In this document: positions 17,199 through 40,920 of the stretch, piece by piece
How the letters are laid out: every line of letters begins with the position of its first letter
Numbering within the stretch: position 1 is the first letter of the stretch
DNA from: Candidatus Daviesbacteria bacterium
GTDB lineage: Bacteria > Patescibacteriota > Microgenomatia > Daviesbacterales > UBA10151
Length of the DNA stretch: 64,000 bases
Direction of reading: 5' to 3'
Assembly (NCBI GenBank): GCA_016176465.1
Contig: JACOXD010000008.1
Span: 7,680-71,679, forward strand
Program-made: the position numbers and the translations under genes
The notes under the pieces: model-generated
What the model was told of the DNA's origin: nothing
Database searches by the model: none
What the model saw: only the letters and a program-made list of their open reading frames with translations

Positions 17199-18314
17199 AT
17201 GAGAATTGGAATAGATGCCAGGTTGTATTCGCAGTCAGGAGTTGGGCGTTATATCAGAAATTTGTTATCTAATCTACAAAAACTAGATAACAAAAATGAC
17301 TATTTTATTTTCCACTTAATGAAAGATTCTAAAAAATTAGTGTATCATAACAATTTTAAAAAAATTGTTGCAGACTTTAGGTGGTATTCTTTAGTAGAAC
17401 AAATTAAGTTTCCCCCGCTTTTAAATAAATATAATCTGGATTTAGTACATTTTCCTCACTTTAACGTGCCATTTTTTTACAAGGGCAAATTTGTAGTCAC
17501 AATTCATGATTTAATTCATCAGCATTTTGCAATGAAGCGAGCAACTGCCCATGATCCAATAATTTTTAGAATCAAACAATTTGGTTATAAAAAAGTATTT
17601 TCCCACGCAGTTTTAAAAAGTGAAAAAATTATTGCAGTTTCCAATTTTATAAAAAGTCAATTAATAAGTGAATGGAATATTTCAAAAGAAAGGATTGAAG
17701 TAACTCCTGAAGCAGTTGCAGACCAGATCCTCACCGCTATGAAGAAATGGAATTTAAGCAAATCACAAACTGTTTTAAACAGATTTAACATAAGGCCTCC
17801 TTTCATCTTTTATATTGGAAATGCCCATCCTCATAAAAATGTAGAGGGACTTATAAAAGCCTTTCAAGAACTTAAGAAAAAAAATAATAACTTACAACTT
17901 GTTTTATCTGGCAGTGATCACTACTTCTGGCAGAGAATAAAAAAAGAATTTAAAAATAATGGAATAATTTACACTGGGTCTATAAACGATGAAGAGTTGG
18001 TTGCACTTTATAAAAGTGCAAAAACTTTTGTAATGCCATCTTTTGAGGAAGGATTTGGAATTCCAATACTTGAGGCTTTTGCATGCTCTTGTCCAGTAAT
18101 ATCCTCTAATGCTGGATCTCTTACTGAGGTTGGAGGAGATGCTTGTCTTTATTTTGATCCAAAAAATCAGGAAGATATGGTAGATAAGATTAGCCAGCCT
18201 CTACATGATGAGAATCTAGTAAAAAAGTTAATAGAAAAAGGGAAGAAAAGAGTAAAACAATTTAGCTTTGAAAAATTAGCAAAAAAAACTTTAGAGATTT
18301 ATAATTCAGTTTAA
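17199..18314 (+). CDS. Glycosyltransferase family 4
   Basis: It carries the signature EGFGIPILEAFACSCPVISSNAGSLTEVGGDACLYFDP. Confidence 0.75.
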   Translation: MRIGIDARLYSQSGVGRYIRNLLSNLQKLDNKNDYFIFHLMKDSKKLVYHNNFKKIVADFRWYSLVEQIKFPPLLNKYNLDLVHFPHFNVPFFYKGKFVVTIHDLIHQHFAMKRATAHDPIIFRIKQFGYKKVFSHAVLKSEKIIAVSNFIKSQLISEWNISKERIEVTPEAVADQILTAMKKWNLSKSQTVLNRFNIRPPFIFYIGNAHPHKNVEGLIKAFQELKKKNNNLQLVLSGSDHYFWQRIKKEFKNNGIIYTGSINDEELVALYKSAKTFVMPSFEEGFGIPILEAFACSCPVISSNAGSLTEVGGDACLYFDPKNQEDMVDKISQPLHDENLVKKLIEKGKKRVKQFSFEKLAKKTLEIYNSV

Positions 18315-19198
18315 ATTTTTTCTGCTGCTCTTAATTTGCCACTTCTGGAGCGAGGGTTAAGGTCAATCTCTTCAATTTCCGGGGTAAGAGGTTTATCAGT
18401 TAATATTTTTAAATTCCCTCTATCTTCCTCCTCATCAAAAAATTTTTTGACAATTCTATCCTCAAGGGAATGAAAACTGATTACTACCAATCTACCCCTT
18501 TGTTCTAAAACCTCAAGTGCTTGAGGTAAAGTTTCTTTTAAACTGTTTAGTTCATCATTAACAGCAATTCGCAGTGCTTGGAAAACCCTTGTTGCTGGAT
18601 GAGTTCTATCAGTTCTAAGCCTTGGCCGAACAGAAGTAATAATTTGAGCCAATTGATTTGTGTCTTCAATTTTTTTAAATCTTCTTGCCTCAACAATCCT
18701 TTCGGCAATTCTTTTGGCGAATCGCTCCTCCCCTAATTTCCAAAAAAGTTCTAAAAGTTCCGTTTCATTTAACCCGTTTATCAAATCAGCAGCTGTTGCT
18801 TGCTGCGCACTCTGATCCATTCTCATATCCAGCGGCCCATCAGAATTAAAACTAAAACCCCGATTAGGAGTTTCCAGCTGATGGGAAGAAACTCCTAAAT
18901 CAAACAAAATTCCGGAAATTGGTTTTTTATCTAACCTCTTAACAATCTCTTTCAAATGAGAGAAATTATCTTGAATTAAAATGAGTTTTTTAGTATCTAT
19001 GTACTCCTTTAAACTTTTAGATACTTCATTAATTGCATCTTTGTCCAAATCTATCCCCACTACGCTTCCTCCTTTATCTAGTATTCCTTTAGTATGTCCT
19101 CCACCCCCTAAATTACAATCTATATACCAACTTTTCTTTTTAATATCCAAAAGTTGCAAAACCTCATCTACCATTACCGAAATATGAAAGTCGCTCAT
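18311..19198 (-). CDS. rsmH: 16S rRNA (cytosine1402-N4)-methyltransferase RsmH/MraW
   Basis: The protein MSDFHISVMVDEVLQLL...DCNLGGGGH...DLGVSSHQL...RIVVISFHSLEDRIVK is RsmH. The track ORF extends to 19363, but the RsmH-like sequence begins at the ATG at 19198. Confidence 0.85.
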   Translation of the reverse strand: MSDFHISVMVDEVLQLLDIKKKSWYIDCNLGGGGHTKGILDKGGSVVGIDLDKDAINEVSKSLKEYIDTKKLILIQDNFSHLKEIVKRLDKKPISGILFDLGVSSHQLETPNRGFSFNSDGPLDMRMDQSAQQATAADLINGLNETELLELFWKLGEERFAKRIAERIVEARRFKKIEDTNQLAQIITSVRPRLRTDRTHPATRVFQALRIAVNDELNSLKETLPQALEVLEQRGRLVVISFHSLEDRIVKKFFDEEEDRGNLKILTDKPLTPEIEEIDLNPRSRSGKLRAAEKI

Positions 19199-19218
19199 CC
19201 AGTGTATTATATTATATT

Positions 19219-20343
19219 TTGGTAGAATTAGATGAAATGAAAGTTGCGCTAGTTCATGATGACTTAGTTCAATGGGGGGGAGCGGAGAGAGTATTATTGG
19301 GTCTTTGTGAGATATTCGAAGATGCTCCAATTTATACCTCAGTTGTTGATTTTTCTCATCCAATTTTAAACAAAAAATTTAAAAATAAAAAAATACTTAC
19401 TTCCTTTATTCAAAAAATTCCTTATTGGAAAAATTTTTATAAATCCTTTTTGCCACTATATCCAATAGCATTTGAACAGTTTGATTTTTCAAAGTATGAT
19501 TGCGTAATTTCCAACACTACCCGCTTTGCTAAAGTAATAATAAGCAAACCTCAAACTATTCATATAAGTTATTGTCACACCCCTCCTAGATTTTTATGGA
19601 ATTTTTCTGAAGATAAGCAAAGCTTTCTTTCAGATAAGCAAAGCTTCTCTGCGAGTAAAAGCCTTCAATTTTTTCCATCATATCTTCATTTTCTAAAAAA
19701 ATATGATCAAATAAGTGCAAATAGAGTTGATTATTTTGTAGCAGGTTCAAAAAACGCCTCTTTAAGGATTAAAGATATTTATAAAAAGGACTCTGATGTT
19801 ATTGTTCCATTTGTCGATGATAAATTTTTTAATTCTGGGGAAAACTTTGAGGGAGATTATTATTTAATTGTTTCTAGATTAAATAAATATAAAAAAGTTG
19901 ACTTAGCAGTAGATGTATTTAATGATTTGGGTAAAAGATTAATTATTGTTGGCAGTGGACCAATGCTAAGTTTGCTTAAAAACAAAGCAAACTCAAATAT
20001 TGAATTTATTGAAAATATAACTGATGAGTTTTTAATAAAACTCTTATCAGGTACTAAGGCATTACTCATTTTAGGTGAAGAAGATTTTGGACTGAGTTCT
20101 TTGGAATCCCAAGCAATGGGAAAGCCGGTAATAGCTTTCCAAAAAGGAGGAGTATTGGAAACGGTTATAGATTCCCAAACAGGTCTTTTTTTCAGGGAAC
20201 AAACGAAAACTTCCCTAAAAGAAGCTATTCAAAAATTTGAATCTTTAGAGTTTGATAAAGAAAAATGTATAAAGAATGCATCTAAATTTTCTTTTGAAAA
20301 TTTTAAAAGTCAATTTTTAGAAATAGTATTAAAATTGACTTAA
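19219..20343 (+). CDS. Glycosyltransferase family 4-like
   Basis: The N-terminus MKVALVHDDLVQWGGAERV is GT4-like; an alternative start lies at 19237. A C-terminal E-x7-E-like segment (GEEDFGLSSLESQAMGKPVI) is present. The gene is divergent from rsmH. Confidence 0.55.
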   Translation: MVELDEMKVALVHDDLVQWGGAERVLLGLCEIFEDAPIYTSVVDFSHPILNKKFKNKKILTSFIQKIPYWKNFYKSFLPLYPIAFEQFDFSKYDCVISNTTRFAKVIISKPQTIHISYCHTPPRFLWNFSEDKQSFLSDKQSFSASKSLQFFPSYLHFLKKYDQISANRVDYFVAGSKNASLRIKDIYKKDSDVIVPFVDDKFFNSGENFEGDYYLIVSRLNKYKKVDLAVDVFNDLGKRLIIVGSGPMLSLLKNKANSNIEFIENITDEFLIKLLSGTKALLILGEEDFGLSSLESQAMGKPVIAFQKGGVLETVIDSQTGLFFREQTKTSLKEAIQKFESLEFDKEKCIKNASKFSFENFKSQFLEIVLKLT

Positions 20344-21092: not shown

Positions 21093-23012
21093 ATGAAATT
21101 TATGAACTTAAACAAACGAATAGAAATGATGGATTCTAAAGCACGTTATAATAAAAGTAATATTAACATGGGAAGAAAAAGAAGCCGCAAACTTATTTTT
21201 CTAAGGGTTTTCATTATCTTATCTTTTCTTTTTGTGGCTATTTATTTACCCATTCGTGGTGTTTATTCTGGTTCTAGATCAATGGTCGCCTCTGCTAAAG
21301 CTATCCAGGCAGCAGCTAAAAATGAAAATTTAGATGATATCAGGAAAAATTTGGAGGAGATGAAGAAATCAGCAGGTGGGATGAACATGTCTTTGAACTT
21401 TTTATTTTGGTTAAGAATTATTCCCTTTGTGGGAGGTTACTACGCAGATGCTAAACATTTTGCTAAAGCTGCTGAGTATGAGCTAGATGCTGCCAAAGTA
21501 ATAGCTGATTCTCTAGATCCTTATAAAAATGAACTTGGGTTTACGGGACAGCCCACACCTGGACAAGATAGAGTTGCTCAACTTGTTAAAATTTTAGATA
21601 AAGTTTTGCCCCAAATAGATAAAGTTGAACCACAACTTAAAAAAGCTAGGGAAGAAGTAAAAAGTATTGATGTTAATAAATATCCGCAAACTTTAGGTGG
21701 GATTAGGTTAAAATCCAGGATAGATACTGCCAGAAATTTTATAATTGGAGCCCACTATGCAGTTACTGAGGCAAAGCCTGCCTTGGAAATTGCTCCCTCG
21801 GCTTTAGGTGAACCCATCGCTAAAAACTATTTAATAATTTTCCAAAATGATAAGGAACTTAGGGCAACAGGAGGTTTTATGACAGCTTATGCATATCTTA
21901 AGTTAGATAAAGGAAGGGTTTCATCTTCTTCCTCTGATGATATTTATAGATTGGATGAGAAATTACTAAGTGTTTGTTTGAGTAAAATTTGCCCGCTGGA
22001 TCCACCCTTACCTATTGTTAAATATTTGCCTGAAGCTACAGGTAAACAAAGAGAGGCATGGAGTATGAGAGATTCTAACCTTTCACCAGATCTGCCAACC
22101 TCAATGAGAGATTTTGAAAAAATGTACCAGATGCTTGGAGAAGGATTACCTTTTGATGGAATAATAATGATTGATACACATGTTGTTGAGGAATTAATTA
22201 AAATCACAGGCCCTGTTGAAGTTTTTGGTACAACTTATTCTGCAGAGTTAGATAAAAGGTGTAATTGTCCAAATGTAATTTATGAGCTGGAAAATTATGC
22301 CCAAATTGTCCAAAAAGGAGAAAAAGATAGGAAAGCTATCTTAGGAACCTTAATGCAACAAATTCTTGCGCGCTCACTTGGTTCATCCACAGATAAAATG
22401 CCTGAGTTTATTAATTCTGGTGTTAAATTAGCAATTGCTAAAAATGTAATGTTTTACCTTCATGACAGCAAAGCTCAGGATGCTTTCTCTAAGCTAAATT
22501 GGACAGGGGAGATTAAGGGCTTCAAAGGGGATTACTTACACATTAATGATTCTAATTTTGCAGGGGGTAAATCTAATCTTTATGTAACTGAGGAAGTTAG
22601 TTTAGATATTAATCTAGAAAAAGGGAAGGTTAAAAACAAATTAACTATAAACTATAAAAATCCTCAAAAATATAGCACTTGGCTAAATGGGAGAAACAGG
22701 GATTATGTGAGGATTTATGTTCCTCAAGGGGCAAAATTGCTTGATTCCAAGGGTTCTGATGTGCCTGTAACAACTATAGAGAAAGAACTGGGAAAAACTG
22801 TTTTTGAATCCTTTATAGAAATCCGCCCACAAAACTCCAGAGTTTTAAGCTTTGAATATGAGCTACCAAGTACTTTTTCAGATAAAGAATATCCTATTTT
22901 AATTCAAAAACAACCAGGGACTAAAGATTTTAAGTATGAGATTAAAATTAATGGAAAGAGTAAGGAAAAATTTGAGCTAAATGCTGATAAAGAACTAATT
23001 CTCCCAATCTAA
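21093..23012 (+). CDS. DUF4012-like exported protein
   Basis: It has an N-terminal signal anchor. The motif KELRATGGFMTAYAYL resembles the DUF4012 R-x-TGGF signature. The protein is 639 aa. Confidence 0.45.
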   Translation: MKFMNLNKRIEMMDSKARYNKSNINMGRKRSRKLIFLRVFIILSFLFVAIYLPIRGVYSGSRSMVASAKAIQAAAKNENLDDIRKNLEEMKKSAGGMNMSLNFLFWLRIIPFVGGYYADAKHFAKAAEYELDAAKVIADSLDPYKNELGFTGQPTPGQDRVAQLVKILDKVLPQIDKVEPQLKKAREEVKSIDVNKYPQTLGGIRLKSRIDTARNFIIGAHYAVTEAKPALEIAPSALGEPIAKNYLIIFQNDKELRATGGFMTAYAYLKLDKGRVSSSSSDDIYRLDEKLLSVCLSKICPLDPPLPIVKYLPEATGKQREAWSMRDSNLSPDLPTSMRDFEKMYQMLGEGLPFDGIIMIDTHVVEELIKITGPVEVFGTTYSAELDKRCNCPNVIYELENYAQIVQKGEKDRKAILGTLMQQILARSLGSSTDKMPEFINSGVKLAIAKNVMFYLHDSKAQDAFSKLNWTGEIKGFKGDYLHINDSNFAGGKSNLYVTEEVSLDINLEKGKVKNKLTINYKNPQKYSTWLNGRNRDYVRIYVPQGAKLLDSKGSDVPVTTIEKELGKTVFESFIEIRPQNSRVLSFEYELPSTFSDKEYPILIQKQPGTKDFKYEIKINGKSKEKFELNADKELILPI

Positions 23013-23013
23013 T

Positions 23014-23490
23014 TTATCTGGTAGCTGGCTTTGGCCAGTGAGCAACATATTCCCTTACTGGCCGGGAAAGAAATTCAGCTATAGGGCGATGATCATATTG
23101 TGTGAATCCTCCGTCGCTAAAATCATAAACCCTAAGATTCCACATTGGGTGCCTGGAATAATGGGGAGTTTCTATATAAGCTGTCAATAGTTGCATGCCA
23201 ATTTTGGCTTGTTCTACTACAGTTGGGGGATCCAAAGAAAGGTCTGGATTTCTAACATCTATTAATAATCCTCCTCCTTCTCTAAGTGTTACTTCCATGT
23301 AAATATATCCTCTTTCTTCTGGTTGCCCTGATATGGACAGAAGTAGATGCTTTGGTTTTTCAACAACTGATATCCTGCGGAGTTGTCCGTTTTGGTCTGG
23401 AGCGGTTACCATTATATCTCCTATGACAGATCTAGCTGTTGAAATAGTAGGATTTCCAGTTAACATTTGTTCTACGAGTTCATATGCCAT
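23014..23490 (-). CDS. Hypothetical protein (orphan, visibly higher GC than surroundings)
   Basis: The 158-aa ORF has no recognisable motif. It is convergent with the DUF4012 gene and sits immediately left of the duplicated recO 5' fragment. Confidence 0.35.
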   Translation of the reverse strand: MAYELVEQMLTGNPTISTARSVIGDIMVTAPDQNGQLRRISVVEKPKHLLLSISGQPEERGYIYMEVTLREGGGLLIDVRNPDLSLDPPTVVEQAKIGMQLLTAYIETPHYSRHPMWNLRVYDFSDGGFTQYDHRPIAEFLSRPVREYVAHWPKPATR

Positions 23491-23583
23491 ATTCTCAATA
23501 TTTTATCGTATGATCGATTATAATTCAAGTTATAGGTCATTTCCTCTATTGAAGCAAAGATATGCATAAGCTAAACTTACCTC

Positions 23584-23650
23584 ATGCCTGCGATAACTAC
23601 AGAAGGACTTATTTTAAAAAGATCTAATTTTGGGGAAGCGGATAGGGAAA
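23584..23650 (+). pseudogene. Duplicated 5' fragment of recO (first ~21 codons plus ~12 nt upstream)
   Basis: MPAITTEGLILKRSNFGEADR matches MPAVTTEGLILKRSNFGEADR of the full recO at 24757 (20/21 aa). Nucleotide identity is ~83%, with the mismatches mostly at synonymous positions. After codon 21 the reading frame runs into repeat elements. Confidence 0.6.
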
Positions 23651-23654
23651 ACTT

Positions 23655-23685
23655 TAGCTTTCCAATCCGGGATTATAGGTTCATA
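23655..23685 (+). repeat. Family C palindromic repeat, partial copy (tagctttccaatccgggattataggttcata)
   Basis: It matches 35119-35180 (tagctttcca...ttccaatccgggattgtaggttcata). Confidence 0.6.
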
Positions 23686-23742
23686 ATGCATTATAGATTC
23701 ATTATGCAAAAATTTAAACTTTGCTCCAAATTGCAGTTAAAA

Positions 23743-23776
23743 ATCCGCAGGTTACCGCTCAATCAACCCCGGGGGT
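23743..23776 (+). repeat. Family A 34-nt repeat ATCCGCAGGTTACCGCTCAATCAACCCCGGGGGT
   Basis: It is identical over 34 nt to 40514-40547, and a degenerate copy lies at 46223-46244. It is GC-rich with a CCCCGGGGG palindromic core. Confidence 0.8.
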
Positions 23777-23849
23777 GGAAACCTGGAAATCACAAAAATT
23801 TAGTCCCATAGTTTGATCTAATTATCATCTTGGTGTATTATCTACTCCT

Positions 23850-24605
23850 ATGTTTGATAGAGAGATGGCTAGAAGTATTATGCAAGAACTTAAAAAGGCC
23901 TCTATAGCAACTCGTAGAATTGTTGAGGATGGATTTGCAGGAGAAGGCGGGTACTGGGGAGCACGGAGGAGTAGCTTAATTAGCATTCAAGTTTTTTTTA
24001 TGGGTGTATTATCTTTACCCATAAAAACTCATTTAGAAATGTTTAAAGCCCCCGGTGAACAAATATATGGTTTGGATTTAATGGGTGAAGCGGAACATTT
24101 GAGAGATTTAAATGTTAGAGGTTTGGGAGTAACTGTGATTGATGATAGAAGTAGGGCAACAAAACTGGAGGACAATGAAAGAGGTATTACAATAATAGGA
24201 ACAAAATTTGATCCAGAAGCTAAGAAAATTATTGAGCTTTCCGATATTTTCTCCGGAAGAACAAGAAGGAGGATTCGAAGGTATATCAAGGATAATGAGA
24301 TTCCTGGTTTTGATTTAATTACTTGTCGTCCTCTTGGAGCTATAAGTTTGGTTCCAAAAGATGTGAATACAGCTTTTTACTTAGTGCAATTTATGTGGGG
24401 TTTACTAAATCCAGAGTATGGATTACTGTTAACTGAGGTGCCCAAAATTGATCCTGGCTTGGTTAATTCTTGGTCTGAGAGGTTAAATACTGATAGAATT
24501 TGTGCAAAATACAAAGAATTTCAGTTATTGAATCCAGGCATATTACAATTGGTAAAAACTCCATCTTCACCCAAGCATTTATCCTCTATTGAAGTTACTA
24601 GTTAA
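23850..24605 (+). CDS. Hypothetical protein (orphan)
   Basis: The 251-aa ORF lies between the recO fragment and intact recO. It has no recognisable motif. Confidence 0.35.
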   Translation: MFDREMARSIMQELKKASIATRRIVEDGFAGEGGYWGARRSSLISIQVFFMGVLSLPIKTHLEMFKAPGEQIYGLDLMGEAEHLRDLNVRGLGVTVIDDRSRATKLEDNERGITIIGTKFDPEAKKIIELSDIFSGRTRRRIRRYIKDNEIPGFDLITCRPLGAISLVPKDVNTAFYLVQFMWGLLNPEYGLLLTEVPKIDPGLVNSWSERLNTDRICAKYKEFQLLNPGILQLVKTPSSPKHLSSIEVTS

Positions 24606-24675
24606 TCTTGTTCACTTCAGTTAGGCAAATTGGTAAAATTTATCCTGACACCTTAAAAGTGTCATCTTAGACTTT

Positions 24676-24710
24676 TGATACAAAAATAGCTATAGCATAG
24701 TTTTGTATCA
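24676..24710. promoter_or_regulatory. Inverted repeat TGATACAAAA-N15-TTTTGTATCA upstream of recO
   Basis: It has a perfect 10-bp stem. Its half-site GATACAA is shared with the 18-bp palindrome at 29451. A second palindrome, TGACACCTTAAAAGTGTCA, lies at ~24646-24664. Confidence 0.4.
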
Positions 24711-24756
24711 GCTCCAAACTTGAATTAGACTCTAACCATGTTTAAACTTCCAATAT

Positions 24757-25395
24757 ATGCCGGCGGTTACCACAGAGGGGTTAATTTTAAAAAGGTCTAA
24801 TTTTGGAGAGGCGGATAGGGTTTTAACTGTACTTACAGATAGGTATGGCAAAATTTCTGTTATTGCTAAGGGAGTTAGAAGGATTACCTCCCGAAGAGCT
24901 GGGAATGTGGAGTTACTAAATAGAGTTAAGCTACATTTATTTAAAGCTAAAAATTATAACCTAACTGAGGCAGAATCTATAGAAACTTTTCCTAAATTAA
25001 AAGAGAACTTAACTCTATCTACAACAGCTTTCCATATTTTAGAGTTAATAGATAGATTAACAGCAGAAGAGCAAAAAAGTCCAAAGTTATATGAACTTAG
25101 TATCTCAATTTTTAGAATTTTAGAACAAAACCCCAGGCAAATTTTTATTAGAGGTTTTGAGGTTAAAATTTTATCTTTACTTGGGTTTTGGTCTATTAAT
25201 GCTATTAAAGAATTAAATGAGGAGCAGAAAAATATTTTGGAAAAGTTAGAATATCAGAGTTGGGAAAAAATAGGGGAGATAGATATTGGCCCCGAGCAAA
25301 GTGATAATTTAGAAAAAATATTAAGGTTTTACCTAGAAAAAATCCTAGAAAGTTCTCTTAAAAGTGTAAAGGTTTTAAAGGATTTAAAGAAGTAA
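24757..25395 (+). CDS. recO: DNA repair protein RecO (short form, no Zn finger)
   Basis: The N-terminal OB-fold segment TEGLILKRSNFGEADRVLTVLTDRYGKISVIAKG is typical of RecO. Confidence 0.65.
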   Translation: MPAVTTEGLILKRSNFGEADRVLTVLTDRYGKISVIAKGVRRITSRRAGNVELLNRVKLHLFKAKNYNLTEAESIETFPKLKENLTLSTTAFHILELIDRLTAEEQKSPKLYELSISIFRILEQNPRQIFIRGFEVKILSLLGFWSINAIKELNEEQKNILEKLEYQSWEKIGEIDIGPEQSDNLEKILRFYLEKILESSLKSVKVLKDLKK

Positions 25396-25419
25396 CTTTA
25401 TTTTTGATATTATATCTTT

Positions 25420-25677
25420 GTGAAGATAATCTTTACAAAACATGCTGAGTCAAAATTCCAAATTTTTTCATCTGGAAAAGTTGTTATAAATAAAGAGAAT
25501 GTTCTAGAGACTGTAAAAAGTCCTGATTTTAAGGATATTGAATCAGATAAACCAAAGATTATAGTTAGTAAGGAGTTAATTGATAAGCTCATTTTGAGAG
25601 TAGTCTATAAAAAAGAGCGTGGTATAATTACCATAGTTACGTTTTATCCCGCAAGGAAAGGAAGATATGAAAAGTAG
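25420..25677 (+). CDS. DUF4258-like small protein (putative toxin)
   Basis: It is 85 aa with a GTG start. Its pattern (MKIIFTKHAESKF...GIITIVTFYP) and size fit DUF4258. It overlaps the next ORF by 11 nt. Confidence 0.45.
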   Translation: MKIIFTKHAESKFQIFSSGKVVINKENVLETVKSPDFKDIESDKPKIIVSKELIDKLILRVVYKKERGIITIVTFYPARKGRYEK

Positions 25678-25921
25678 TCAAAAAATTAGTTACGAACCAA
25701 AAGATGATGTGTTAAATATTTGGCTGTCAAGGGAGCCTATTGATTACGCTGAGCAAAATGGTGATGTAATTGTCCACTTTAGTAAAGATAATGAAGCAGT
25801 TTATATAGAGATTCTTGATGCCAGTAAGATGTTAAAAGATTTAAGTAAAACTATTCCCAGTAATCTTAAAAAAAGTTGGTTTAGTATACCTACTTCTTCT
25901 ATAGCGCATAGAATTAAATAA
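25667..25921 (+). CDS. DUF2283-like small protein (putative antitoxin partner of DUF4258)
   Basis: MKSSQKISYEPKDDVLNIWLSREPIDYAEQNGDVIVHFSKDNEAVYIEILDASK matches the DUF2283 pattern (K..YD.E.D.LYI.L). Confidence 0.5.
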   Translation: MKSSQKISYEPKDDVLNIWLSREPIDYAEQNGDVIVHFSKDNEAVYIEILDASKMLKDLSKTIPSNLKKSWFSIPTSSIAHRIK

Positions 25922-25925
25922 ATTC

Positions 25926-26156
25926 GTGAAAAACAAAATTCAATATAGCGATGAACCAATTGAGGCAAGAGTAATAACTGATTTTTTACCAAGCCCTGAA
26001 AATTTAGTGCTCAAAGAAAAAAAGAAGAGAGTCACAATAACTTTAACTGATAAAAGTTTAGACTTCTTTAAAAAAGCTGCTAAAAAACATGGTGCTTCTT
26101 ATCAGGCAATGATAAGAAGGTTAATTGATTTCTATGTAGCTAACCAAAGAGTCTGA
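25926..26156 (+). CDS. BrnA/CopG-like ribbon-helix-helix antitoxin
   Basis: KRVTITLTDKSLDFFKKAAKKHGASYQAMIRRLIDFYV is BrnA-like (RHH followed by a helix). Confidence 0.5.
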   Translation: MKNKIQYSDEPIEARVITDFLPSPENLVLKEKKKRVTITLTDKSLDFFKKAAKKHGASYQAMIRRLIDFYVANQRV

Positions 26157-26321
26157 ATCATATTAGAAAAAATGACTTTGTGGTGGGAAAGGAATTGGCA
26201 TCGAGTTGTAAAAATTCTTATTATACTTTTTTTATTTTATCTTTGGTTGAATTAGTCCAAATAATCCCAGATAGCAAGCAGATTAATTGTGTTACAAGTG
26301 TCTTAGTAATAAAATGCAGAT

Positions 26322-29300
26322 ATGTTCAAGAGATATTTAAACGCAGTTTTTGAGAAATATAACACCGGTGAGGCTAGTGAACGGAGTTATTATTCATTAC
26401 TTGAGGAGTTGCTTAAGAGTTTCCAAAAAGATACACAAACAATTGTTGAAGCAAAGAAGTCGAGAGTTGGAATTCCTGACTTTAAAGTGAAGACTGAAAA
26501 AAACCTTTTAGTTGGTTATATTGAAGCTAAAGATTTAAGCAACGATTTAGATAAACTTGACAATGTAGATAAAGAACAAATAGAGAAATATAAGAAAGAA
26601 TACCCAAAACTTATAGTGACTAATTTTATTGAGTTTAAGCTATATGAAAATGGTGAATTAGTTGATTCTGTCTTTATTACTCAACCAATAACTCGTCAAA
26701 TTGGAATTCCAGCATTAGATAACGAAGCTAGGATTAATGGTTTATTTGAAAGATTTTTTTCAACCACAATACAAGAGGTTCATTCTGCAAAAAGATTGTC
26801 TGAGCTCTTAGCGCATAAAACACGAGTGTTGAGGGATTTAACCAGAGAAGAGATTGATCTAACTGATCAAGAAGAAACAGAAACAGAAAAGTTACTAAAG
26901 ACTTTCAAACAGACTCTTAAGCCCGATATGAGTCCAGATGTTTTTGCAGACATGTACGCCCAGACAATTACATTCGGACTGTTTGTAGCCAGAATCAATT
27001 CAGATCACCAAGAGTTTACTCGTCATAGTGCTCATTCATTGATACCTCATACAATTCCCCTTTTGAAAAAAATATTCTGGATTTTATCAGGCCAAGACGT
27101 ACCACAGCACATTGAATGGCAAATTGATGAAATCGCTGAGATTTTAGCAAATACCAAAATCGAAAAAATAACTGAGGAATTTTTCAGTCATGGAAAAGGT
27201 AGGGATCCCATCATACATTTTTACGAAACTTTTCTGTCAGAATATGATTCAAGTCAAAGGGAGCAGTTAGGGGTTTATTACACTCCACAACCAGTAGTTT
27301 CTTACATAACGAGATCACTAAATAAAATTTTAAAAAATAATTTTGGAAAAAGTGAAGGTTTTGCTGACACATCAGTAATATCTCTTGATCCGGCTGCTGG
27401 TACGCTTACTTTCCCTGCAGAAGCTATAGCAATTGCAAAGCAAGAATTTGAAGCCTCTCATGGGAGGGGAGGATGGAATAGCTTGGTGAAAGAACATATT
27501 CTCAAAAACTTTTATGCTTTTGAAATTTTAATGGCCCCGTATGCAATTGGACATCTAAAAATTTCTTTACTTCTTAAGGAGCTAGGTTACGAAATGAGTG
27601 AAGATGAGCGGTTTGAGTTATACCTTACGAATACTCTTGATATGTCCAAATTGAAACTCCAACAGGAAATGTTGGCTGAAGAGATATCAGAGGAATCTGA
27701 GAAGGCATTTGAGATAAAAGATAAAGTACCAGTCCTCATTGTTATGGGTAATCCCCCTTATTCTGGACACTCATCAAATAAAGGTGTGTGGATAGAAAAT
27801 CAAATAGAGGAATATAAAAAAGTTGACGGCAAACCATTAGGAGAAAGAAATCCCAAGTGGTTGAATGATGATTATGTAAAGTTTATACGTTTTGCCCAGT
27901 GGAAAATAGAAAAGACTGGCCAGGGTATTTTGGGATTTATCACCAACCATGCTTGGCTTGATAATCCAACTTTTAGAGGAATGAGAAACTCGTTGATGAA
28001 GTCCTTTGATGAGATATACATTCTAAATCTTCACGGTAGCGCACTGAAAAAAGAAAAAGTTCCAGAAGAGGTACAAGATAAAGAAAAAATTGGTGAGAGA
28101 GATGAGGGGGTTTTTGGTATTCGTCCAGGAACCGCTATTACATTAGCAGTAAAGAGAAATCAATCGAAGGGTAAGTCCAAAGTTTATTATTCTGGACAAT
28201 GGGGACTGAGAAGTAAGAAATTTGAATGGCTTGACAGTCACGACGTTGAACTTACAGATTGGAAACTTATTACTCCAAAGAGTTCAACTTATCTATTTAT
28301 AGAAAGAAATGAAAAGGAGTTTATTACTTATGAGAAGTTTACTTCAATTAGGGATGTTTTTCCTTTGAGTGGAATAGGAATTATAACAGCTCGTGACCAG
28401 TTTGTAATTGATCTTGATAAAAATGCGTTAGTAAATAGGATTAGATTATTTAAATATTCTAAGGAAAATGACGAACAATTGCACCTCCTATTTCAAATTA
28501 GCAAAAAGAAGGGTTGGTCTATCAGGAGAGCTTGGGAAATGTTGCAAAAAGTAAACGATGAGGAAATTAATGATTTAGTCGTTAAAATTCAATATAGACT
28601 CAACGATGAAAGATGGATTTTCTACCACGATTCTTTAGTTTGGAGGACAGTTAAGAGAATTATGTTTCAATTATTGAGACCAAACTTGGCATTGGTTACT
28701 TGTAGACAACTAACTGGTAGTAATTTCCAGCATTCCTTTGCGGTTGATAAATTAGTTGATGATAGTTTTATTTCAAATAAATCTAAGGAAAGAGGTTACG
28801 TCTTCCCATTGTATATTTATAGTGACAAAGGTCAACAAAGCCTTTTACTCGAAGATAGCGATAGAAGGCAGAATATAAACTGGAACTCATTGCCAGAATG
28901 GATGGCAATGATACAGCCTTTTACTTCTCACGCAACAAACAACTTTATTCAAGTTCCAGAAGCCATCTTTTATTATATTTATGCTGTTTTATATTCGAAT
29001 GTTTATCGCAAAAAATATCAGGAATTTCTGAAGTCTGATTTTCCAAGGATTCCTTTTACAAAGGACAATGAACTTTTCCGATCTTTAGCAATTCTGGGAG
29101 AGCAGTTAGTTGAACTTCACTTACTGAAATCAAAGTTACTAGTTAAACCAGTATCCCACTACGAAGGCAAGGGGGATAATAGGATAGGAAAAAGAAACTA
29201 TAATGGGTCATCCCGTGTTTATATAAACGATTCACAATTTTTTGACAAGGTTAGTCCAGAGGTTTGGAACTATTACATTGGTGGATACCAAGTATTGGAT

Positions 29301-29441
29301 AAGTGGTTAAAAGATAGAGTCGGACGAATTTTATCACTTGAAGATCAATTACATTATAGGAAAATGATTACTGCTTTATCTGAGACAATAAATATTCAGA
29401 AGAGAATTGATAAATTTTATCCTGAAGTGGAAAAACTTTAA
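26322..29441 (+). CDS. MmeI-like single-polypeptide type IIL restriction-modification enzyme (PD-ExK nuclease + gamma-class N6-adenine methyltransferase + TRD)
   Basis: The N-terminus has GIPDF...VGYIEAKD, a PD-(D/E)xK-like motif. The centre has DPAAGTLTF (motif I-like) and LIVMGNPPYSGHSS (motif IV NPPY). There is no Walker A or helicase motif. The 1039-aa length and domain order fit the MmeI family. Confidence 0.7.
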   Translation: MFKRYLNAVFEKYNTGEASERSYYSLLEELLKSFQKDTQTIVEAKKSRVGIPDFKVKTEKNLLVGYIEAKDLSNDLDKLDNVDKEQIEKYKKEYPKLIVTNFIEFKLYENGELVDSVFITQPITRQIGIPALDNEARINGLFERFFSTTIQEVHSAKRLSELLAHKTRVLRDLTREEIDLTDQEETETEKLLKTFKQTLKPDMSPDVFADMYAQTITFGLFVARINSDHQEFTRHSAHSLIPHTIPLLKKIFWILSGQDVPQHIEWQIDEIAEILANTKIEKITEEFFSHGKGRDPIIHFYETFLSEYDSSQREQLGVYYTPQPVVSYITRSLNKILKNNFGKSEGFADTSVISLDPAAGTLTFPAEAIAIAKQEFEASHGRGGWNSLVKEHILKNFYAFEILMAPYAIGHLKISLLLKELGYEMSEDERFELYLTNTLDMSKLKLQQEMLAEEISEESEKAFEIKDKVPVLIVMGNPPYSGHSSNKGVWIENQIEEYKKVDGKPLGERNPKWLNDDYVKFIRFAQWKIEKTGQGILGFITNHAWLDNPTFRGMRNSLMKSFDEIYILNLHGSALKKEKVPEEVQDKEKIGERDEGVFGIRPGTAITLAVKRNQSKGKSKVYYSGQWGLRSKKFEWLDSHDVELTDWKLITPKSSTYLFIERNEKEFITYEKFTSIRDVFPLSGIGIITARDQFVIDLDKNALVNRIRLFKYSKENDEQLHLLFQISKKKGWSIRRAWEMLQKVNDEEINDLVVKIQYRLNDERWIFYHDSLVWRTVKRIMFQLLRPNLALVTCRQLTGSNFQHSFAVDKLVDDSFISNKSKERGYVFPLYIYSDKGQQSLLLEDSDRRQNINWNSLPEWMAMIQPFTSHATNNFIQVPEAIFYYIYAVLYSNVYRKKYQEFLKSDFPRIPFTKDNELFRSLAILGEQLVELHLLKSKLLVKPVSHYEGKGDNRIGKRNYNGSSRVYINDSQFFDKVSPEVWNYYIGGYQVLDKWLKDRVGRILSLEDQLHYRKMITALSETINIQKRIDKFYPEVEKL

Positions 29442-29450
29442 TTGATTAAG

Positions 29451-29468
29451 GATACAATATATTGTATC
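29451..29468. promoter_or_regulatory. Perfect 18-bp palindrome GATACAATATATTGTATC abutting a TTGACT -35-like hexamer (29469-29474) upstream of the HNH gene
   Basis: This is a perfect inverted repeat seen directly in the sequence. It may be an operator site. Confidence 0.45.
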
Positions 29469-29505
29469 TTGACTTATTAACGGTGGTATATGTTATGGTG
29501 GAAGT

Positions 29506-29793
29506 ATGAATAGCTTACTAAAATGTCGTTATTGCGGTTGGGTGGGAGGAAAAAGTGATTTTGAATGGGATCATATGGATCCTAAAATTAAAACAGAGTC
29601 ATTTCTGTTAGATTTTCTACAAGGGAAACTTGAACTAATTTGTTCAGGATGTAATAGGCAAAAAAGCGATAAAACTTCACAAGATTATACATTTTGGAGA
29701 TGGTTATTCCCTAGACAGGCAAACTTTGGTCCTATAAGAGCACATACTTTTATGGATACATTGCTCCAAAGAATTCATAGAGAGATTAGATAA
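29506..29793 (+). CDS. HNH endonuclease-fold small protein
   Basis: It shows CRYCGW...EWDHMDP...GKLELICSGCNRQKSD, i.e. CxxC / D-H / N / CxxCN spacing. Confidence 0.55.
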   Translation: MNSLLKCRYCGWVGGKSDFEWDHMDPKIKTESFLLDFLQGKLELICSGCNRQKSDKTSQDYTFWRWLFPRQANFGPIRAHTFMDTLLQRIHREIR

Positions 29794-29832
29794 TTTTCCA
29801 ATATTTTTGATTCTATTTTTAAATAATTTTAT

Positions 29833-29901
29833 GTAACCCCAAATTCCACCTGTGTAACCCCAAATTCCACCTGGGAGGTGGATTAGCTTGACACCTAGGG
29901 A
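29833..29901 (+). repeat. Family B 69-nt composite repeat: tandem 21-mer x2 (GTAACCCCAAATTCCACCTGT), hairpin CCACCTGGGAGGTGG, then TTGACACCTAGGGA
   Basis: It is ~87% identical to 61273-61341. It contains an internal direct repeat plus a perfect 6-bp-stem GC hairpin. Confidence 0.8.
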
Positions 29902-29950
29902 TTTAAGAATTTTTTGAGGCTGTTTTGGATGAGTACATATTATAATACTT

Positions 29951-30150
29951 TTATGGCAATTGATTGGACAAACATTTATAAAAAATATAAGGGCCTTTGG
30001 GTGGCATTAAGAGAAGATGAGATAACTGTAGTTTCCTCTGGGAAAAATGCAAAAGAAGCTTGGGAAAAAGCACAAAAAATGGGCTTTAAAAAACCAATAT
30101 TAATGAATGTGCCTAAAAATTTAACTTATTTTGTCACTGGAACTTATTAA
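29951..30150 (+). CDS. Small DUF5678-like protein
   Basis: MAIDWTNIYKKYKGLWVALREDEITVVSSGKNAKEAWEKAQKMGFKKPILMNVP fits the pattern of small K-G-x-WVAL...VV..G...E...A...G...P proteins. The track ORF starts at a TTG at 29914; the ATG at 29951 is more likely. Confidence 0.4.
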
Positions 30151-30186
30151 TCTTCGACAATATCTCTCATAATTTGTGCTAAAAAA

Positions 30187-30195
30187 TGCTAGAAT
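30187..30195 (+). promoter_or_regulatory. Extended -10 promoter element TGCTAGAAT upstream of glyS, followed by a leader hairpin (aatgtcattctga...tcaggatgacaat)
   Basis: A TGnTAnAAT match lies ~85 nt upstream of the glyS ATG. The leader contains an imperfect 11-bp inverted repeat. Confidence 0.3.
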
Positions 30196-30275
30196 GAAAG
30201 GAATGTCATTCTGACACGTAAGTGAAGAATCTAATTAGATCCTTCGGCCAGAGCCTCAGGATGACAATATAAAAT

Positions 30276-31613
30276 ATGGATGATAACAAGCAAGATTTAA
30301 TGGAAAAAATTGTAGCTTTATGTAAGAGAAGGGGATTTATTTATCCTGGATCTGAAATTTATGGTGGTTTAGCAAATTCTTGGGACTATGGACCTTTAGG
30401 AGTGGAACTAAAAAATAATATTAAAAACCTTTGGTGGAAAAAGTTTGTACAAGGCAGAGATGATATTGTTGGAATTGATGCTTCTTTAATAATGAATCCA
30501 AAAGTTTGGGAAGCGAGTGGACATCTAGAAAATTTTACTGACCCTTTGGTTGAGTGTAAAGTTTGTCATCAACGTTTCAGGGCTGATGAGATAGAAGATG
30601 CTTGCCCGAATTGCGGAGAGAAAAATTCTTTTACAGAGACGAAGGTTTTTAATTTGATGTTCAAAACTTTCGTTGGTCCTGCCCAAGAAACTTCAAATGT
30701 TGCTTATTTTAGACCAGAAACAGCTCAGGCTATGTTTGTGGATTTTAAAAATGTGATTGATTCAACTAGAGTTAGACTTCCCTTTGGGATTGCTCAAATT
30801 GGAAAAGCTTTTAGAAATGAAATAACCCCAGGGAATTTTATTTTTAGGACTAGAGAGTTTGAGCTGATGGAAATTGAATATTTTATAAGAGTTCCAAAAT
30901 CAGATAAGGAATGGCAAAAAGAGTTTGAAAAATGGAAAGAAATGATGTGGAGTTGGATTGTGAATGATCTGGGAATTGATAAAACTAAAGTTCATGAACT
31001 AGAAGTGCCGGATGCAGAGCGTGCCCATTATTCCAAACGCACCATAGATTTTGAATATGATTTTCCTTTTGGTAGAAAAGAACTTTATGGGTTAGCATAT
31101 AGAACTGATTTTGACTTAAAGAATCATCAAGAATTCAGTGGCCAAAATCTAAAGTATAGAGATCCAGAGGCAGGTGAGGAGTTTTGGCCGCATGTAATAG
31201 AACCAGCGTTGGGGGTAGAGAGATCAGTTCTGGTTGTACTGGTCGATTCATATCGAGAAGATGAAGGAAGGGTGTATCTTAAACTTCCGGCCAAATTGGC
31301 TCCCTATAAAGCCGCTATATTTCCACTTTTAGGCAATAAACCAGAACTAATTGAGGTTGCTAGAAAAATTTATCTGGATTTAAGAAAAGAATTTATGGTA
31401 GCCTGGGATGACAGGGGAAATATAGGAAAGCGTTATGCAAGCCAGGATGAAATAGGAACACCCTACTGCATAACTGTTGATTTTGATTCACTAGAAGATG
31501 GCGCAGTAACTGTTAGGGATAGAGATAGCACTAAACAAGAAAGAGTTAAAATCCAAGAATTGAAAAATTACTTACTATCTTTTATAAATACTGAAAAATG
31601 TTTTACTTCGTAA
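30276..31613 (+). CDS. glyQS: Glycine--tRNA ligase (alpha2 type)
   Basis: It is 445 aa. The N-terminal GFIYPGSEIYGGLANSWDYGPLGVELKNNI and class II motifs are present. Confidence 0.85.
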   Translation: MDDNKQDLMEKIVALCKRRGFIYPGSEIYGGLANSWDYGPLGVELKNNIKNLWWKKFVQGRDDIVGIDASLIMNPKVWEASGHLENFTDPLVECKVCHQRFRADEIEDACPNCGEKNSFTETKVFNLMFKTFVGPAQETSNVAYFRPETAQAMFVDFKNVIDSTRVRLPFGIAQIGKAFRNEITPGNFIFRTREFELMEIEYFIRVPKSDKEWQKEFEKWKEMMWSWIVNDLGIDKTKVHELEVPDAERAHYSKRTIDFEYDFPFGRKELYGLAYRTDFDLKNHQEFSGQNLKYRDPEAGEEFWPHVIEPALGVERSVLVVLVDSYREDEGRVYLKLPAKLAPYKAAIFPLLGNKPELIEVARKIYLDLRKEFMVAWDDRGNIGKRYASQDEIGTPYCITVDFDSLEDGAVTVRDRDSTKQERVKIQELKNYLLSFINTEKCFTS

Positions 31614-31746
31614 TAAAATTACTCTTGCATTAGTTTTAGCAATCCTACTTATTTTAAGTGGGGGAGTAGCTGCTTATTTTAAGTTTTTTTACAAAGAAGT
31701 CCCTGAGATAATCCAAGAAGTTCCTTTAACTTTTAACCCAGAAGGT

Positions 31747-32466
31747 GTGTATGCTATTTTAACTCCTCGTAAGGATGGAGTGGCAATTGATCTATCAGCG
31801 AGGCGGATTTCCCAATATAACGCTATCTCTTATAATTTACCTTACTTTGATAAAGGAGGAATTCAAAGAGCTGCAGGTGATTTGGAAACTTGGATAGAAA
31901 TTAAAAAAGGACAGAGTGAATTTAAACAGGAAAATTTACTGGGTAGCTGCTCTCAAGGATTTACCTCAGGTAAAGCACACTGTGTGTTTGATGAAAATGT
32001 AGAAAATGGAACTTTAGTGGTTAGATTTAAAGAGCCAAAAAATAAAGAAAATATTGCTAAAGTTTATAAATATACTACTTTATGGCATCTGCAAGCACCT
32101 GATGTGGCTTTGGGAAAAATAACATCAAATGATGAGAGGTTTATGTATGAGACAGATGTACCAAGAACTGATCTTGTTAATATTGCCTATACTTTAGTTC
32201 ATGAAATCTCAGCAGCTCCTAAATTACCTGAAGGGAAAAAAGTGGTTGGAAAAGTTTATAACTTTGCAATTCCTATTGCCAAAAAATTCCCTGCGGGTGA
32301 TATAACTATTAGTTTGACTGATGATCCTCCTCCTTTAGTAAATATTGCCTTATTTATGGAGGCAAAAAATAATTGGGAGTTACTAGATACAACTGTAAAT
32401 GGTAAAAAACTGACTGCTAAAGCTCCTCAGTCTGGTATATTTAGTGTTTTATCGGATGATAAATAA
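31747..32466 (+). CDS. Hypothetical protein; the reading frame is open upstream and encodes a TM helix, but has no canonical start codon there
   Basis: The track start is the GTG at 31747. The in-frame upstream segment 31621-31746 encodes TLALVLAILLILSGGVAAYFKFF, with no ATG, GTG or TTG after the stop at ~31585. Confidence 0.4.
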   Translation: MYAILTPRKDGVAIDLSARRISQYNAISYNLPYFDKGGIQRAAGDLETWIEIKKGQSEFKQENLLGSCSQGFTSGKAHCVFDENVENGTLVVRFKEPKNKENIAKVYKYTTLWHLQAPDVALGKITSNDERFMYETDVPRTDLVNIAYTLVHEISAAPKLPEGKKVVGKVYNFAIPIAKKFPAGDITISLTDDPPPLVNIALFMEAKNNWELLDTTVNGKKLTAKAPQSGIFSVLSDDK

Positions 32467-32613
32467 TCCCTTTTTAAGATTTTCTTGTATTTATTGATCT
32501 AATTTGATACATTAATAGGATATCTTGGCTGTAAAAACCTAACTGCACTACGTAGAAATTTATTTTCAAGTTCCACACAAAAGTAAAAATAACTCTTGAC
32601 AAGCATTTTCAAT

Positions 32614-32643
32614 TGGCTGAAAATGGATATAGATGGTAAATCT
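32614..32643 (+). promoter_or_regulatory. Three direct TGGnT repeats at 10-bp spacing downstream of a TTGACA at ~32596: putative MraZ operator/promoter of the dcw cluster
   Basis: The sequence TGGCTGAAAA TGGATATAGA TGGTAAATCT sits immediately upstream of the mraZ ATG. MraZ proteins are known to bind arrays of TGGGN-like direct repeats. Confidence 0.4.
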
Positions 32644-32654
32644 GCCCAGAAAAG

Positions 32655-33050
32655 ATGTTTTTGGGCACTTATAAATTATATTTTAGTGGAAAGAACAGGT
32701 TGATTTTGCCTAAAAAATTCAGACAAGAATTAGGTAATGAGAGTGTAATCTATATTGTTTTGGGTCAAGATGGTGAATTATGGGGATTTAATTCAAATCA
32801 ATGGCTAAAAGAGGCTGAGGAAAGGTTGAAAATACGGCTTGGAAAACATTTAGGACGGGTCCAAAGAAGGGAATTCTTTCCACAAGCGCTTCAATGCAAC
32901 TTAGATTCCCAGGGAAGATTTATCCTACCCCAGGAATTTATAGACTATGCAACTTTAAATAATGGAATAGTTTTGGTGGGAGCAGGGGATCATTTCGAAA
33001 TTTGGAACGAAGGAAACTGGCAAAAAATGAAAAGGATTTTAAAAATATGA
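32655..33050 (+). CDS. mraZ: Transcriptional regulator MraZ
   Basis: MFLGTYKLYFSGKNRLILPKKFRQELG shows the duplicated MraZ/SpoVT-AbrB fold pattern. It is the first gene of the dcw cluster. Confidence 0.8.
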   Translation: MFLGTYKLYFSGKNRLILPKKFRQELGNESVIYIVLGQDGELWGFNSNQWLKEAEERLKIRLGKHLGRVQRREFFPQALQCNLDSQGRFILPQEFIDYATLNNGIVLVGAGDHFEIWNEGNWQKMKRILKI

Positions 33051-33358
33051 ACCTTTTATATAAATTTAGAAGTTACCCTTTCCTTAGTAGGAAAATAATT
33101 TTATCTTTAATAGTGGTTACAATTGTAGCAGCCTTAATCCAAATCTGGGTGGTAAACAGATTATCAACTTATGGCGAGCAAATAATCTCTTTAGAAAAAT
33201 CTGCCAATGTTTTGGAGCTGGAAAATAAAGTTTTAAGAAATAAGCTAGATAAAGCCTCATCACTAAAGGAAATTAACATTCTTGCCAGAAATTTAGGGTT
33301 TGAGAGCATCAAAAAGATAGAATATCTTCAAGATATAGGCATTGCCTTAAACAAATAA
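33002..33358 (+). CDS. ftsL: FtsL-like cell-division protein (single TM + coiled coil)
   Basis: It is 118 aa with a TTG start, a basic N-terminus, one TM helix and a periplasmic leucine-zipper-like segment. It sits between mraZ and ftsI. Confidence 0.45.
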   Translation: MERRKLAKNEKDFKNMNLLYKFRSYPFLSRKIILSLIVVTIVAALIQIWVVNRLSTYGEQIISLEKSANVLELENKVLRNKLDKASSLKEINILARNLGFESIKKIEYLQDIGIALNK

Positions 33359-33390
33359 CTTCGATCAAGATATAATTTAGTTGCCTCCTT

Positions 33391-37114: not shown

Positions 37115-37129
37115 TAGTATAATGAGGTT

Positions 37130-39327: not shown

Positions 39328-39334
39328 ATTTGTA

Positions 39335-40918: not shown

Positions 40919-40920
40919 AG

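Follow-up and report, generated by a model that had tools for sequence, protein, structure and literature searches.

A 64-kb stretch of the genome of a Candidatus Daviesbacteria bacterium (Microgenomates, within the candidate phyla radiation, CPR), here called the window, contains a GC-rich 34-nt sequence that is repeated without a mismatch at two intergenic sites. This 34-mer represents subfamily A, the one copied most recently, within a family of GC-rich, hairpin-forming intergenic motifs of approximately 40 nt. Descriptions of non-coding functions are scarce for CPR genomes, which are small and densely packed with genes. A full-text literature search found no description of such intergenic repeats in CPR or Daviesbacteria. 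The family is new, but the kind of object is ordinary, as small hairpin repeats are common in bacteria. The elements can be tentatively interpreted, with slightly less than an even chance of being right, as transcribed hairpins at cistron ends that resemble repetitive extragenic palindromes (REP) and bacterial interspersed mosaic elements (BIME), and that would be spread by occasional copying or conversion or with imported DNA.

The exact repeat and the hairpin family around it

The sequence ATCCGCAGGTTACCGCTCAATCAACCCCGGGGGT occurs exactly at 23743-23776 (copy A1) and 40514-40547 (copy A2), both on the plus strand and 16.8 kb apart. No further site in the window matches it with up to three mismatches, and none of 100 dinucleotide-preserving shuffles contained a match. 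The initial annotation had reported this 34/34 identity and placed A1 after a fragment of recO and A2 just past ftsW; the identity was verified by a whole-window search and the gene context by Pfam. The identity goes beyond chance and indicates recent copying or conversion, plus functional constraint. It breaks off sharply at either end, and the flanks of A1 and A2 are unrelated. The GC content of the element is 62%, versus 26-39% across the window.

An assembly artefact, a chance match, or solitary CRISPR (clustered regularly interspaced short palindromic repeats)-like repeats would be highly improbable explanations. The source is a metagenome-assembled genome, and the length of 34-36 nt and the 3'-terminal hairpin resemble those of some CRISPR repeats. 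However, Logan contigs from five other runs (SRR12113383, -384, -420, -424, and -430), which are independent assemblies with k = 31, start or end within the 34-mer, on both sides for copy 1 and on the right side for copy 2. On one side these contigs break off at position 1 or 5 of the repeat, and on the other at position 26, 30, or 34; breaks at 5 and 30 are those predicted for a repeat that slightly exceeds k = 31 in length and occurs in two or more contexts. One contig (L021) covers ftsW, the 34-mer, the open reading frame (ORF) ORF106, and murG unbroken with 100% identity. Because independent assemblies reproduce the repeat in both contexts, it is no assembly artefact, a possibility that had been raised for it earlier. 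Copies are also conserved at syntenic operon junctions, and the artefact and chance readings are effectively refuted. As for CRISPR, there is no array and no cas gene or domain in the window, and no Rfam CRISPR-DR (direct repeat) match on the element.

The identical block is not the whole element, since the 3' strand of a stem continues 2 nt past the 34-mer. The initial annotation was right about the identity but missed both this extension and the wider hairpin family. The members have in common a 5' box, (A)TYC-NN-AGGT-N8-9-AAYC, and, behind it, a stem of 6-7 bp closed by a 3-nt loop. When a covariance model of the A- and B-type sequences was applied to the 64 kb, it returned exactly five elements at 44-51 bits, then a decayed copy, and then noise. 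The five are A1 (full motif 23741-23781, 51 bits), in an insert between a DUF4012 gene and recO; A2 (full motif 40512-40552, 46.3 bits), at the left edge of an insert between ftsW and murG; B1 (29864-29904, minus strand, 51 bits), with the hairpin TCCACCT-CCC-AGGTGGA, at the right edge of an island of defence genes; B2 (61304-61345, minus strand, 44.1 bits), downstream of tRNA-Asp on the same strand; and B3 (35200-35240, plus strand, 48.7 bits), with the hairpin CCCACAC-CGG-GTGTGGG, in the ftsI-murE spacer. The sixth, A3 (46221-46256, plus strand, 14.3 bits, E = 0.02), is a decayed A-type copy with 65% identity in the ftsZ-ileS gap, which has retained the 5' box and lost the hairpin. A degenerate copy had already been proposed at 46223; it is real but weak, matching at 18 of 22 positions in the 5' part. 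Several subfamilies coexist in one genome.

A diverged relative, D (approximately 50455-50495, plus strand, in the rodA-rplU spacer), was missed by the covariance model and is probably a seventh member in the window. It has CGCTCA(GT)ATCAACC in common with the A type, a pattern found three times versus 0.01 expected, and it forms a 3-nt-loop hairpin with the order CGCTCA / TGAGCG / GCTCAA. The spacer that holds the D hairpin (50455-50525) measures 84 nt, compared to 32-36 nt in relatives, and a consensus-like promoter (TTGACA, 17 nt, TAAAAT; 50496-50524) follows the hairpin. B1 and B2 are each trailed on their own strand by two tandem 21-nt units (AGGTGGAATTTGGGGTTACAC and a variant), at 29833-29884 and 61273-61324, respectively, and the two loci are 90% identical. 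In predicted folds, these units pair with the 5' box of the motif.

The hairpin itself is well supported by sequence variation. In the alignments named A4 and A5, 92-94% of the stem-loop cells are paired, and changes on both sides occur in 3/6 pairs (alignment A4) and 4/7 pairs (alignment A5). The stem covariation score was reached by 0/500 shuffles, and the pairing signal collapses once the partners are slid by 1-3 columns. The stem is kept by compensatory substitutions. Its 3' strand is repeated directly by the AGGTK of the 5' box, which gives an X..X'..X layout that is exact in B1, B2, D, and a copy from the relative L013 that is described below. The window contains three instances of this layout, whereas 20 shuffles yielded one instance in all, 19 of them being without it. 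The layout makes an alternative helix possible, with weaker support than the stem: 75% of the helix is paired, and a single pair covaries (positions 13 and 26, T-A in the A types and G-C in the B types).

Such an arrangement could act as a cis-regulatory RNA switch or attenuator, in which the 5' box competes with the 3' strand for the middle strand and thereby tunes read-through or translation of the next cistron. The exact copies of the layout and their rarity in shuffles, the pairing and covariation of the alternative helix, and the location of elements between cistrons of the dcw operon would agree with this. We nevertheless consider a switch clearly unlikely. The alternative helix is weak in the window A copies (4 bp with two A-C mismatches) and shifted in register in B3, there is no U-tract, and no consistently placed start codon follows the 3' strand, which resembles a Shine-Dalgarno (SD) sequence. 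Moreover, the L013 copy lies between convergent genes, and the covariation is equally explicable as a direct DNA repeat.

The sequences next to the 34-mer had also been regarded as reverse complements of each other, as if an adjacent segment were present in opposite orientations. The quoted letters, GGAAACCTGGAAAT after A1 and (T)TTCCGTATTTCC after A2, are correct, but their similarity as reverse complements is only 9/12, a value that is reached by 4.8% of random 20-mer pairs from the window (P ~0.05). Nothing similar adjoins the L013 copy, and the idea of an inverted segment was not upheld. The A1 flank happens to pair with the AGGTT box (CAGGTT/AACCTG), a pairing that is unconserved in A2 and L013.

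Conservation in relatives and genomic position

Six relatives with FtsW proteins 65-68% identical (L011, L013, L014, L016, L018, and L019) were used for comparison. The conserved gene order is DUF4012, recO, class II tRNA synthetase, mraZ, ftsL, ftsI, murE, an FAD-binding (murB-like) gene, murF, mraY, ftsW, murG, ftsQ, ftsA, ftsZ, ileS, rodA, and rplU. A mismatch-tolerant scan of these loci revealed ATTCCAAGGTTGCCGCACAATCAACCTCGGAGGT at L013:15931-15964, which is identical to the 34-mer at 27/34 positions. This intact copy occupies the ftsZ-ileS gap, as does the decayed A3 in the window. Between the window and L013, identity is 68% for FtsW and on average 68% over the aligned coding DNA, and intergenic alignments at E <= 1e-3 are absent. 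A second copy, at L014:5781-5821, was found by the covariance model before it was added to the seed (E = 8.5e-6). It has the exact stem of B3 (CCCACAC/GTGTGGG) and lies in the same ftsI-murE spacer. Diverged copies are thus found at syntenic operon junctions (ftsI-murE and ftsZ-ileS) in two distant Daviesbacteria with FtsW identities of 67-68%. Judged by this comparison, the motif is under selection, because the element matches at 27/34 positions where coding DNA averages 68% and intergenic DNA cannot be aligned. The covariance model found no copies in L011, L016, L018, or L019. Weak matches inside ftsW of all relatives (e.g., L016:10813) reflect a conserved coding motif at chance level and were rejected.

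The comparison with L013 also bears on whether the 34-mer is a coding remnant or encodes a small peptide in frame 1 (IRRLPLNQPRG; IPRLPHNQPRR in L013). This frame is open and in frame with an upstream ORF in A1, A2, and L013, 4/7 of the substitutions that separate the window copies from the L013 copy affect third codon positions, and the reverse strand has stops in all three frames. A1 lies inside a 75-aa ORF that starts at the ATG of the recO fragment, A2 lies past ftsW and one stop, and the L013 copy lies past an 87-aa ORF and two stops. However, there is no usable start codon, and these stops separate the element from ftsW and from the L013 ORF. A 4/7 distribution in one of three frames is expected by chance approximately 40% of the time, the peptide is not common to the B-type members, and codon periodicity is not significant. 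The agreement in frame 1 is probably a coincidence, and a coding origin is extremely unlikely.

All members are intergenic. Only 4,038 bases of the 64-kb window are intergenic, and the elements fill the largest gaps. The ftsW-murG spacer is 20-35 nt long or replaced by an overlap in five relatives and holds a different insert in L018; in the window it measures 419 nt and contains A2 and a 106-aa ORF. The DUF4012 gene and recO are adjacent in L016 and L019, whereas 1.7 kb is inserted between them in the window. This insert comprises a minus-strand 158-aa orphan ORF, a 64-nt recO 5' fragment, a palindrome of another repeat family (C), A1, and a 251-aa orphan gene. The ftsI-murE spacer is 22-122 nt in relatives and 208 nt in the window. 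As the corresponding spacers are short or empty in relatives, both perfect copies lie in lineage-specific DNA.

Most members follow a gene closely. A2 starts 12-13 nt past the ftsW stop codon, the probable member D approximately 10 nt past rodA, B2 15 nt past tRNA-Asp, the L014 copy 41 nt past ftsI, the L013 copy 67 nt past the 87-aa ORF, B3 79 nt past ftsI, and A1 94-95 nt past the recO fragment. Excluding D, 6/8 definite members are found 13-94 nt downstream of a same-strand gene, gene fragment, or tRNA, the others being A3 and B1. With the exception of B1, the definite members are co-oriented with local transcription (7/8, one-sided P ~0.035).

An operator or promoter would be another use for such a position, for example a minus-strand promoter with TTGAGC/TTGTGC as the -35 element and a TAATWA-like -10 element just outside the motif, or a transcription-factor site for the downstream orphan genes. 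We regard this as very unlikely. Admittedly, A2, A3, and L013 each have a -10-like hexamer on the minus strand, 2-3 nt outside the element; on that strand, A1 and A3 have ORFs of 158 and 139 aa, respectively, downstream of them, and a palindromic hairpin could bind a dimer. At A2 and L013, however, transcription of the minus strand would yield nothing but antisense RNA to ftsW or the 87-aa ORF, and -10-like hexamers come cheaply because the flanks are AT-rich in a genome of 33% GC. Promoter-like matches in the region number 85, versus 67 +/- 8 in shuffled sequence, and are barely above expectation. Stem covariation would be unexpected for an operator.

Comparison with known elements and proposed role

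The window was searched against Rfam 15 at gathering thresholds, which returned four tRNAs only, and E-value mode on the A1, A3, L013, B1, and B3 regions gave chance-level matches to unrelated families only. BLAST searches against phages and plasmids gave no match to the element. Searches with ATCCRCAGGTTANCNCTNAATC (genome, metagenome, and viral contigs) and AGGTTRCCGCWCAATCAACC (viral contigs) gave chance matches only, to high-GC Chloroflexi or metagenome contigs without other similarity, and no viral contig matched. Pfam searches on 51 window ORFs identified no transposase (including Y1_Tnp/RAYT, the REP-associated tyrosine transposase), integrase, recombinase, or Cas domain. These results lend no support to the possibility that the 34-mer belongs to a known element such as an insertion sequence end or a tRNA-derived short interspersed element. 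Rfam also lent no support to the B-type loop UCUAGCUAA as a preQ1-I aptamer or to a T-box leader for ileS at A3. The 5' box also looks like the reverse complement of the 16S rRNA 3' end, and the stem like an anti-SD/SD pair, but only if indels and a permuted order are allowed; this likeness was dismissed as coincidental.

REP and BIME of Enterobacteria and Pseudomonas are mobilised by RAYT transposases (Y1 HUH) and number from tens to hundreds in a genome, frequently arranged as inverted pairs. Once transcribed, a REP hairpin stabilises the upstream mRNA. The elements described here resemble them in length (approximately 35-40 nt), in their high GC content relative to the surroundings, and in being hairpin-forming, strictly extragenic, and located downstream of genes or between cistrons. 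Several subfamilies per genome and near-identical copies with unrelated flanks are further common features, and the elements are short extragenic hairpin-forming palindromes, as REP are by definition. In contrast to REP, the palindrome spans only 15-17 nt and is preceded by an asymmetric conserved box of 22 nt. The foot of the stem carries AAYC instead of GT(A/G)G, with the AGGT box 12-13 nt upstream (alignment A5). No inverted pairs (REPINs) are seen among the 6-7 copies in the 64 kb, and no RAYT gene is present there. The elements are accordingly REP-like by analogy; with the GTAG foot absent, membership of the REP/RAYT class is not established.

Other classes share fewer features. BOX, RUP, and Correia-type repeats or miniature inverted-repeat transposable elements (MITEs), known from Streptococcus pneumoniae and Neisseria, are likewise modular and combinable hairpins at operon junctions that can alter expression, the modules here being A, B, C, D, and the tandem 21-mers. 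They are 100-200 nt long, however, in comparison to approximately 40 nt, and A1 and A2 have neither the terminal inverted repeats (ends ATCC... / ...GGGT) nor the target-site duplication (AA|GG, GT|TT) of a MITE. Intrinsic (Rho-independent) terminators are also GC-rich stem-loops shortly past a stop codon or tRNA, but the stems of the elements are short (6-7 bp) with a 3-nt loop, and the conserved 5' box is foreign to terminators. Only the L014 copy, which is followed by UACUUUUG, has a UUUU.

Taken as REP/BIME-like hairpins, the elements would be transcribed within operon mRNAs. The RNA hairpin at the cistron end may serve as a signal for 3'-end formation, processing, stability, or weak termination, and a sequence-specific protein might act on the 5' box. 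New copies would be made now and then by copying or conversion into spacers that tolerate them, or would be brought in with imported DNA, which would lead to 34/34 identity with unrelated flanks.

Several observations weigh against this interpretation. An RNA-level role would be argued from orientation and position only. The mobilising enzyme is absent from the 64-kb window, four of the six relatives are without the element, and the members total 8-9 in approximately 190 kb. Most hairpins are without a U-tract, and a terminator scan of 23000-42000 flagged none of A1, A2, B1, and B3; its 12 hits compare to a shuffled expectation of 12.7. The A-type copies alone fold better on the opposite strand, as a longer hairpin with G-U pairs (for the L013 reverse strand, -14.4 kcal/mol, z = -3.8), so that either strand may be the functional one. 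The regions around the elements have unexceptional folding energies (z from -2.0 to +1.0 for the window regions). Finally, the 34-nt identity ends 2 nt inside the conserved stem, short of the end of its 3' strand, which a simple copying model does not explain.

The motif is conserved at dcw-operon junctions across deep Daviesbacteria lineages and appears to be still multiplying in one genome. In these organisms, which cannot be cultured, it is a candidate cis-acting signal for expression control inside operons or for the formation of mRNA ends. As it borders inserted orphan and defence genes, it may also serve as a marker of recent genome plasticity. The covariance model is ready for a phylum-wide survey.

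The recO fragment, family C, and inserted genes

The left junction of the insert that bears A1 is marked by the recO fragment (23584-23647, plus strand), which comprises 21 codons of the recO 5' end. It differs from the resident recO (24757-24820) at 11/64 bases. Nine codons are changed, eight of them synonymously, and the ninth replaces Ile with Val; the synonymous excess has P ~3e-6 under neutral change. The fragment matches the resident gene at 53/64 positions, and recO of other genera matches it at 45-56/64, L013 being closest with 56/64. Because the changes are mostly synonymous and the distance is like that of recO from other genera, the fragment is best read as a foreign allele that diverged under selection and not as a decaying duplicate. 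It was probably left by recombination with DNA of another Daviesbacterium, and its pattern suggests imported DNA with one crossover inside recO. The initial annotation had set the 34/34 identity against an 83% drift of duplicated coding sequence. This contrast fails, since a foreign allele under selection provides no clock.

Family C consists of short hairpins with a CGG or CCG loop (e.g., TTACAATC-CGG-GATTGTAG). One unit, a palindrome around CCGGG at 23660-23685 (plus strand), lies 13 nt after the recO breakpoint and 57 nt upstream of A1. Two tandem units at 35132-35180 (plus strand) lie 20 nt upstream of B3, and two units in inverted orientation at 45982-46030 (minus strand) lie 193 nt from A3. 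Each unit terminates in TAGGTTCA, a sequence similar to the AGGT box of the A and B types. The inner of the two inverted units has a tail (45976-45990, minus strand; GTAGGTTCAATCAAC) that is similar to an A motif lacking 7 nt. Families A, B, and C may be modules of one system. A composite element with family C had been hinted at earlier. Units are indeed found upstream of A1, A3, and B3, but not at A2, B1, B2, or the L013 copy, and their orientation varies. As permissive spacers are few, co-occurrence is weak evidence for a composite. A larger structured RNA formed by C together with A or B was rejected, given that the fold z is only -0.9 to -2.0 and the architecture differs between sites.

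The association with inserts raises the question of a DNA recombination or insertion site, in which the palindrome with its CCSGG-like core and the box would be the target or scar of a site-specific recombinase or of a cassette-like insertion. A2 is at the very left edge of the ftsW-murG insert, B1 adjoins the right edge of a 4.9-kb defence island, and B2 abuts tRNA-Asp; the distance to the recO breakpoint is 13 nt for the family C unit and 95 nt for A1. A different gene occupies the same ftsW-murG junction in L018, and the inserted genes are orphans. The elements are comparable to the attC sites of integrons in being imperfect palindromes that separate an operon gene from an inserted orphan ORF and that border lineage-specific DNA. 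However, attC sites are 57-141 nt long, whereas the element is approximately 40 nt long and has no R''/L''-L'/R' arms and no GTTRRRY core; no integrase is present in the window, and element copies also occur where there is no cassette. The 64 kb contains no recombinase or transposase either, and no insert is closed by a second matching site. B3, its L014 orthologue, and the L013 copy have no inserted gene beside them. The stem covaries and is not conserved, which is unusual for a protein-recognised core, and the co-location may reflect the small number of spacers that tolerate extra DNA. We therefore consider a recombination site unlikely.

A broader version of this idea, which we regard as quite improbable, is that the A, B, C, and D modules are recognition sites of an uncharacterised CPR system that inserts orphan or defence genes into operon spacers. 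It would lead to elements at the borders of at least three lineage-specific inserts and to a foreign recO 5' allele at one junction. With no integrase nearby, insertion might proceed by homology-facilitated or hairpin-directed recombination.

Searches of Pfam, PHROGs, NCBIfam, and PDB sequences and searches for homologues gave no function for the orphan genes next to the elements. The 251-aa gene downstream of A1 (23850-24605, plus strand) has no Pfam, PHROG, or NCBIfam match and one homologue, with 37% identity, and the AlphaFold model of its product is unusable (predicted local distance difference test score of 32). The 106-aa ORF downstream of A2 (ORF106; 40598-40918, plus strand) has no homologue among 5.8 billion proteins. 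A 13-nt block, CCCATAGTTTGAT, is identical at 23805-23817 and L010:43-55, upstream of the 251-aa gene and its only homologue, respectively. It overlaps a -35-like TTGAT, and the homologue has a different neighbouring gene. The block is likely a promoter or operator of the 251-aa gene itself. The L010 contig begins approximately where an A- or B-type hairpin would lie.

In relatives, recO and the gene for the class II tRNA synthetase are neighbours; in the window, the defence island with B1 at its right edge (4.9 kb; 25420-29793) lies between them. The island encodes small toxin/antitoxin-like ORFs (PBECR3-like, DUF2283, and RHH/BrnA), a 1039-aa Type ISP/MmeI-like restriction-modification enzyme, and a 95-aa HNH endonuclease. 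The gene inserted at the ftsW-murG junction of L018 (L018:11046-12703) encodes a GNAT acetyltransferase, and the part of murG that is called there is limited to a C-terminal fragment; insertions seem to recur at this junction. The ftsZ-ileS gap of the window holds the 139-aa ORF (45479-45898, minus strand), the C-terminal part of which matches the C-terminal (helix-hairpin-helix) domain of the RNA polymerase alpha subunit, and the same gap in relatives contains a PaaX-like regulator, a phosphoesterase, or nothing. The rsmH (mraW) gene (18311-19363, minus strand) is located approximately 13 kb from the mraZ/dcw cluster on the opposite strand, inside a large glycosyltransferase/PMT cluster (1-21000).

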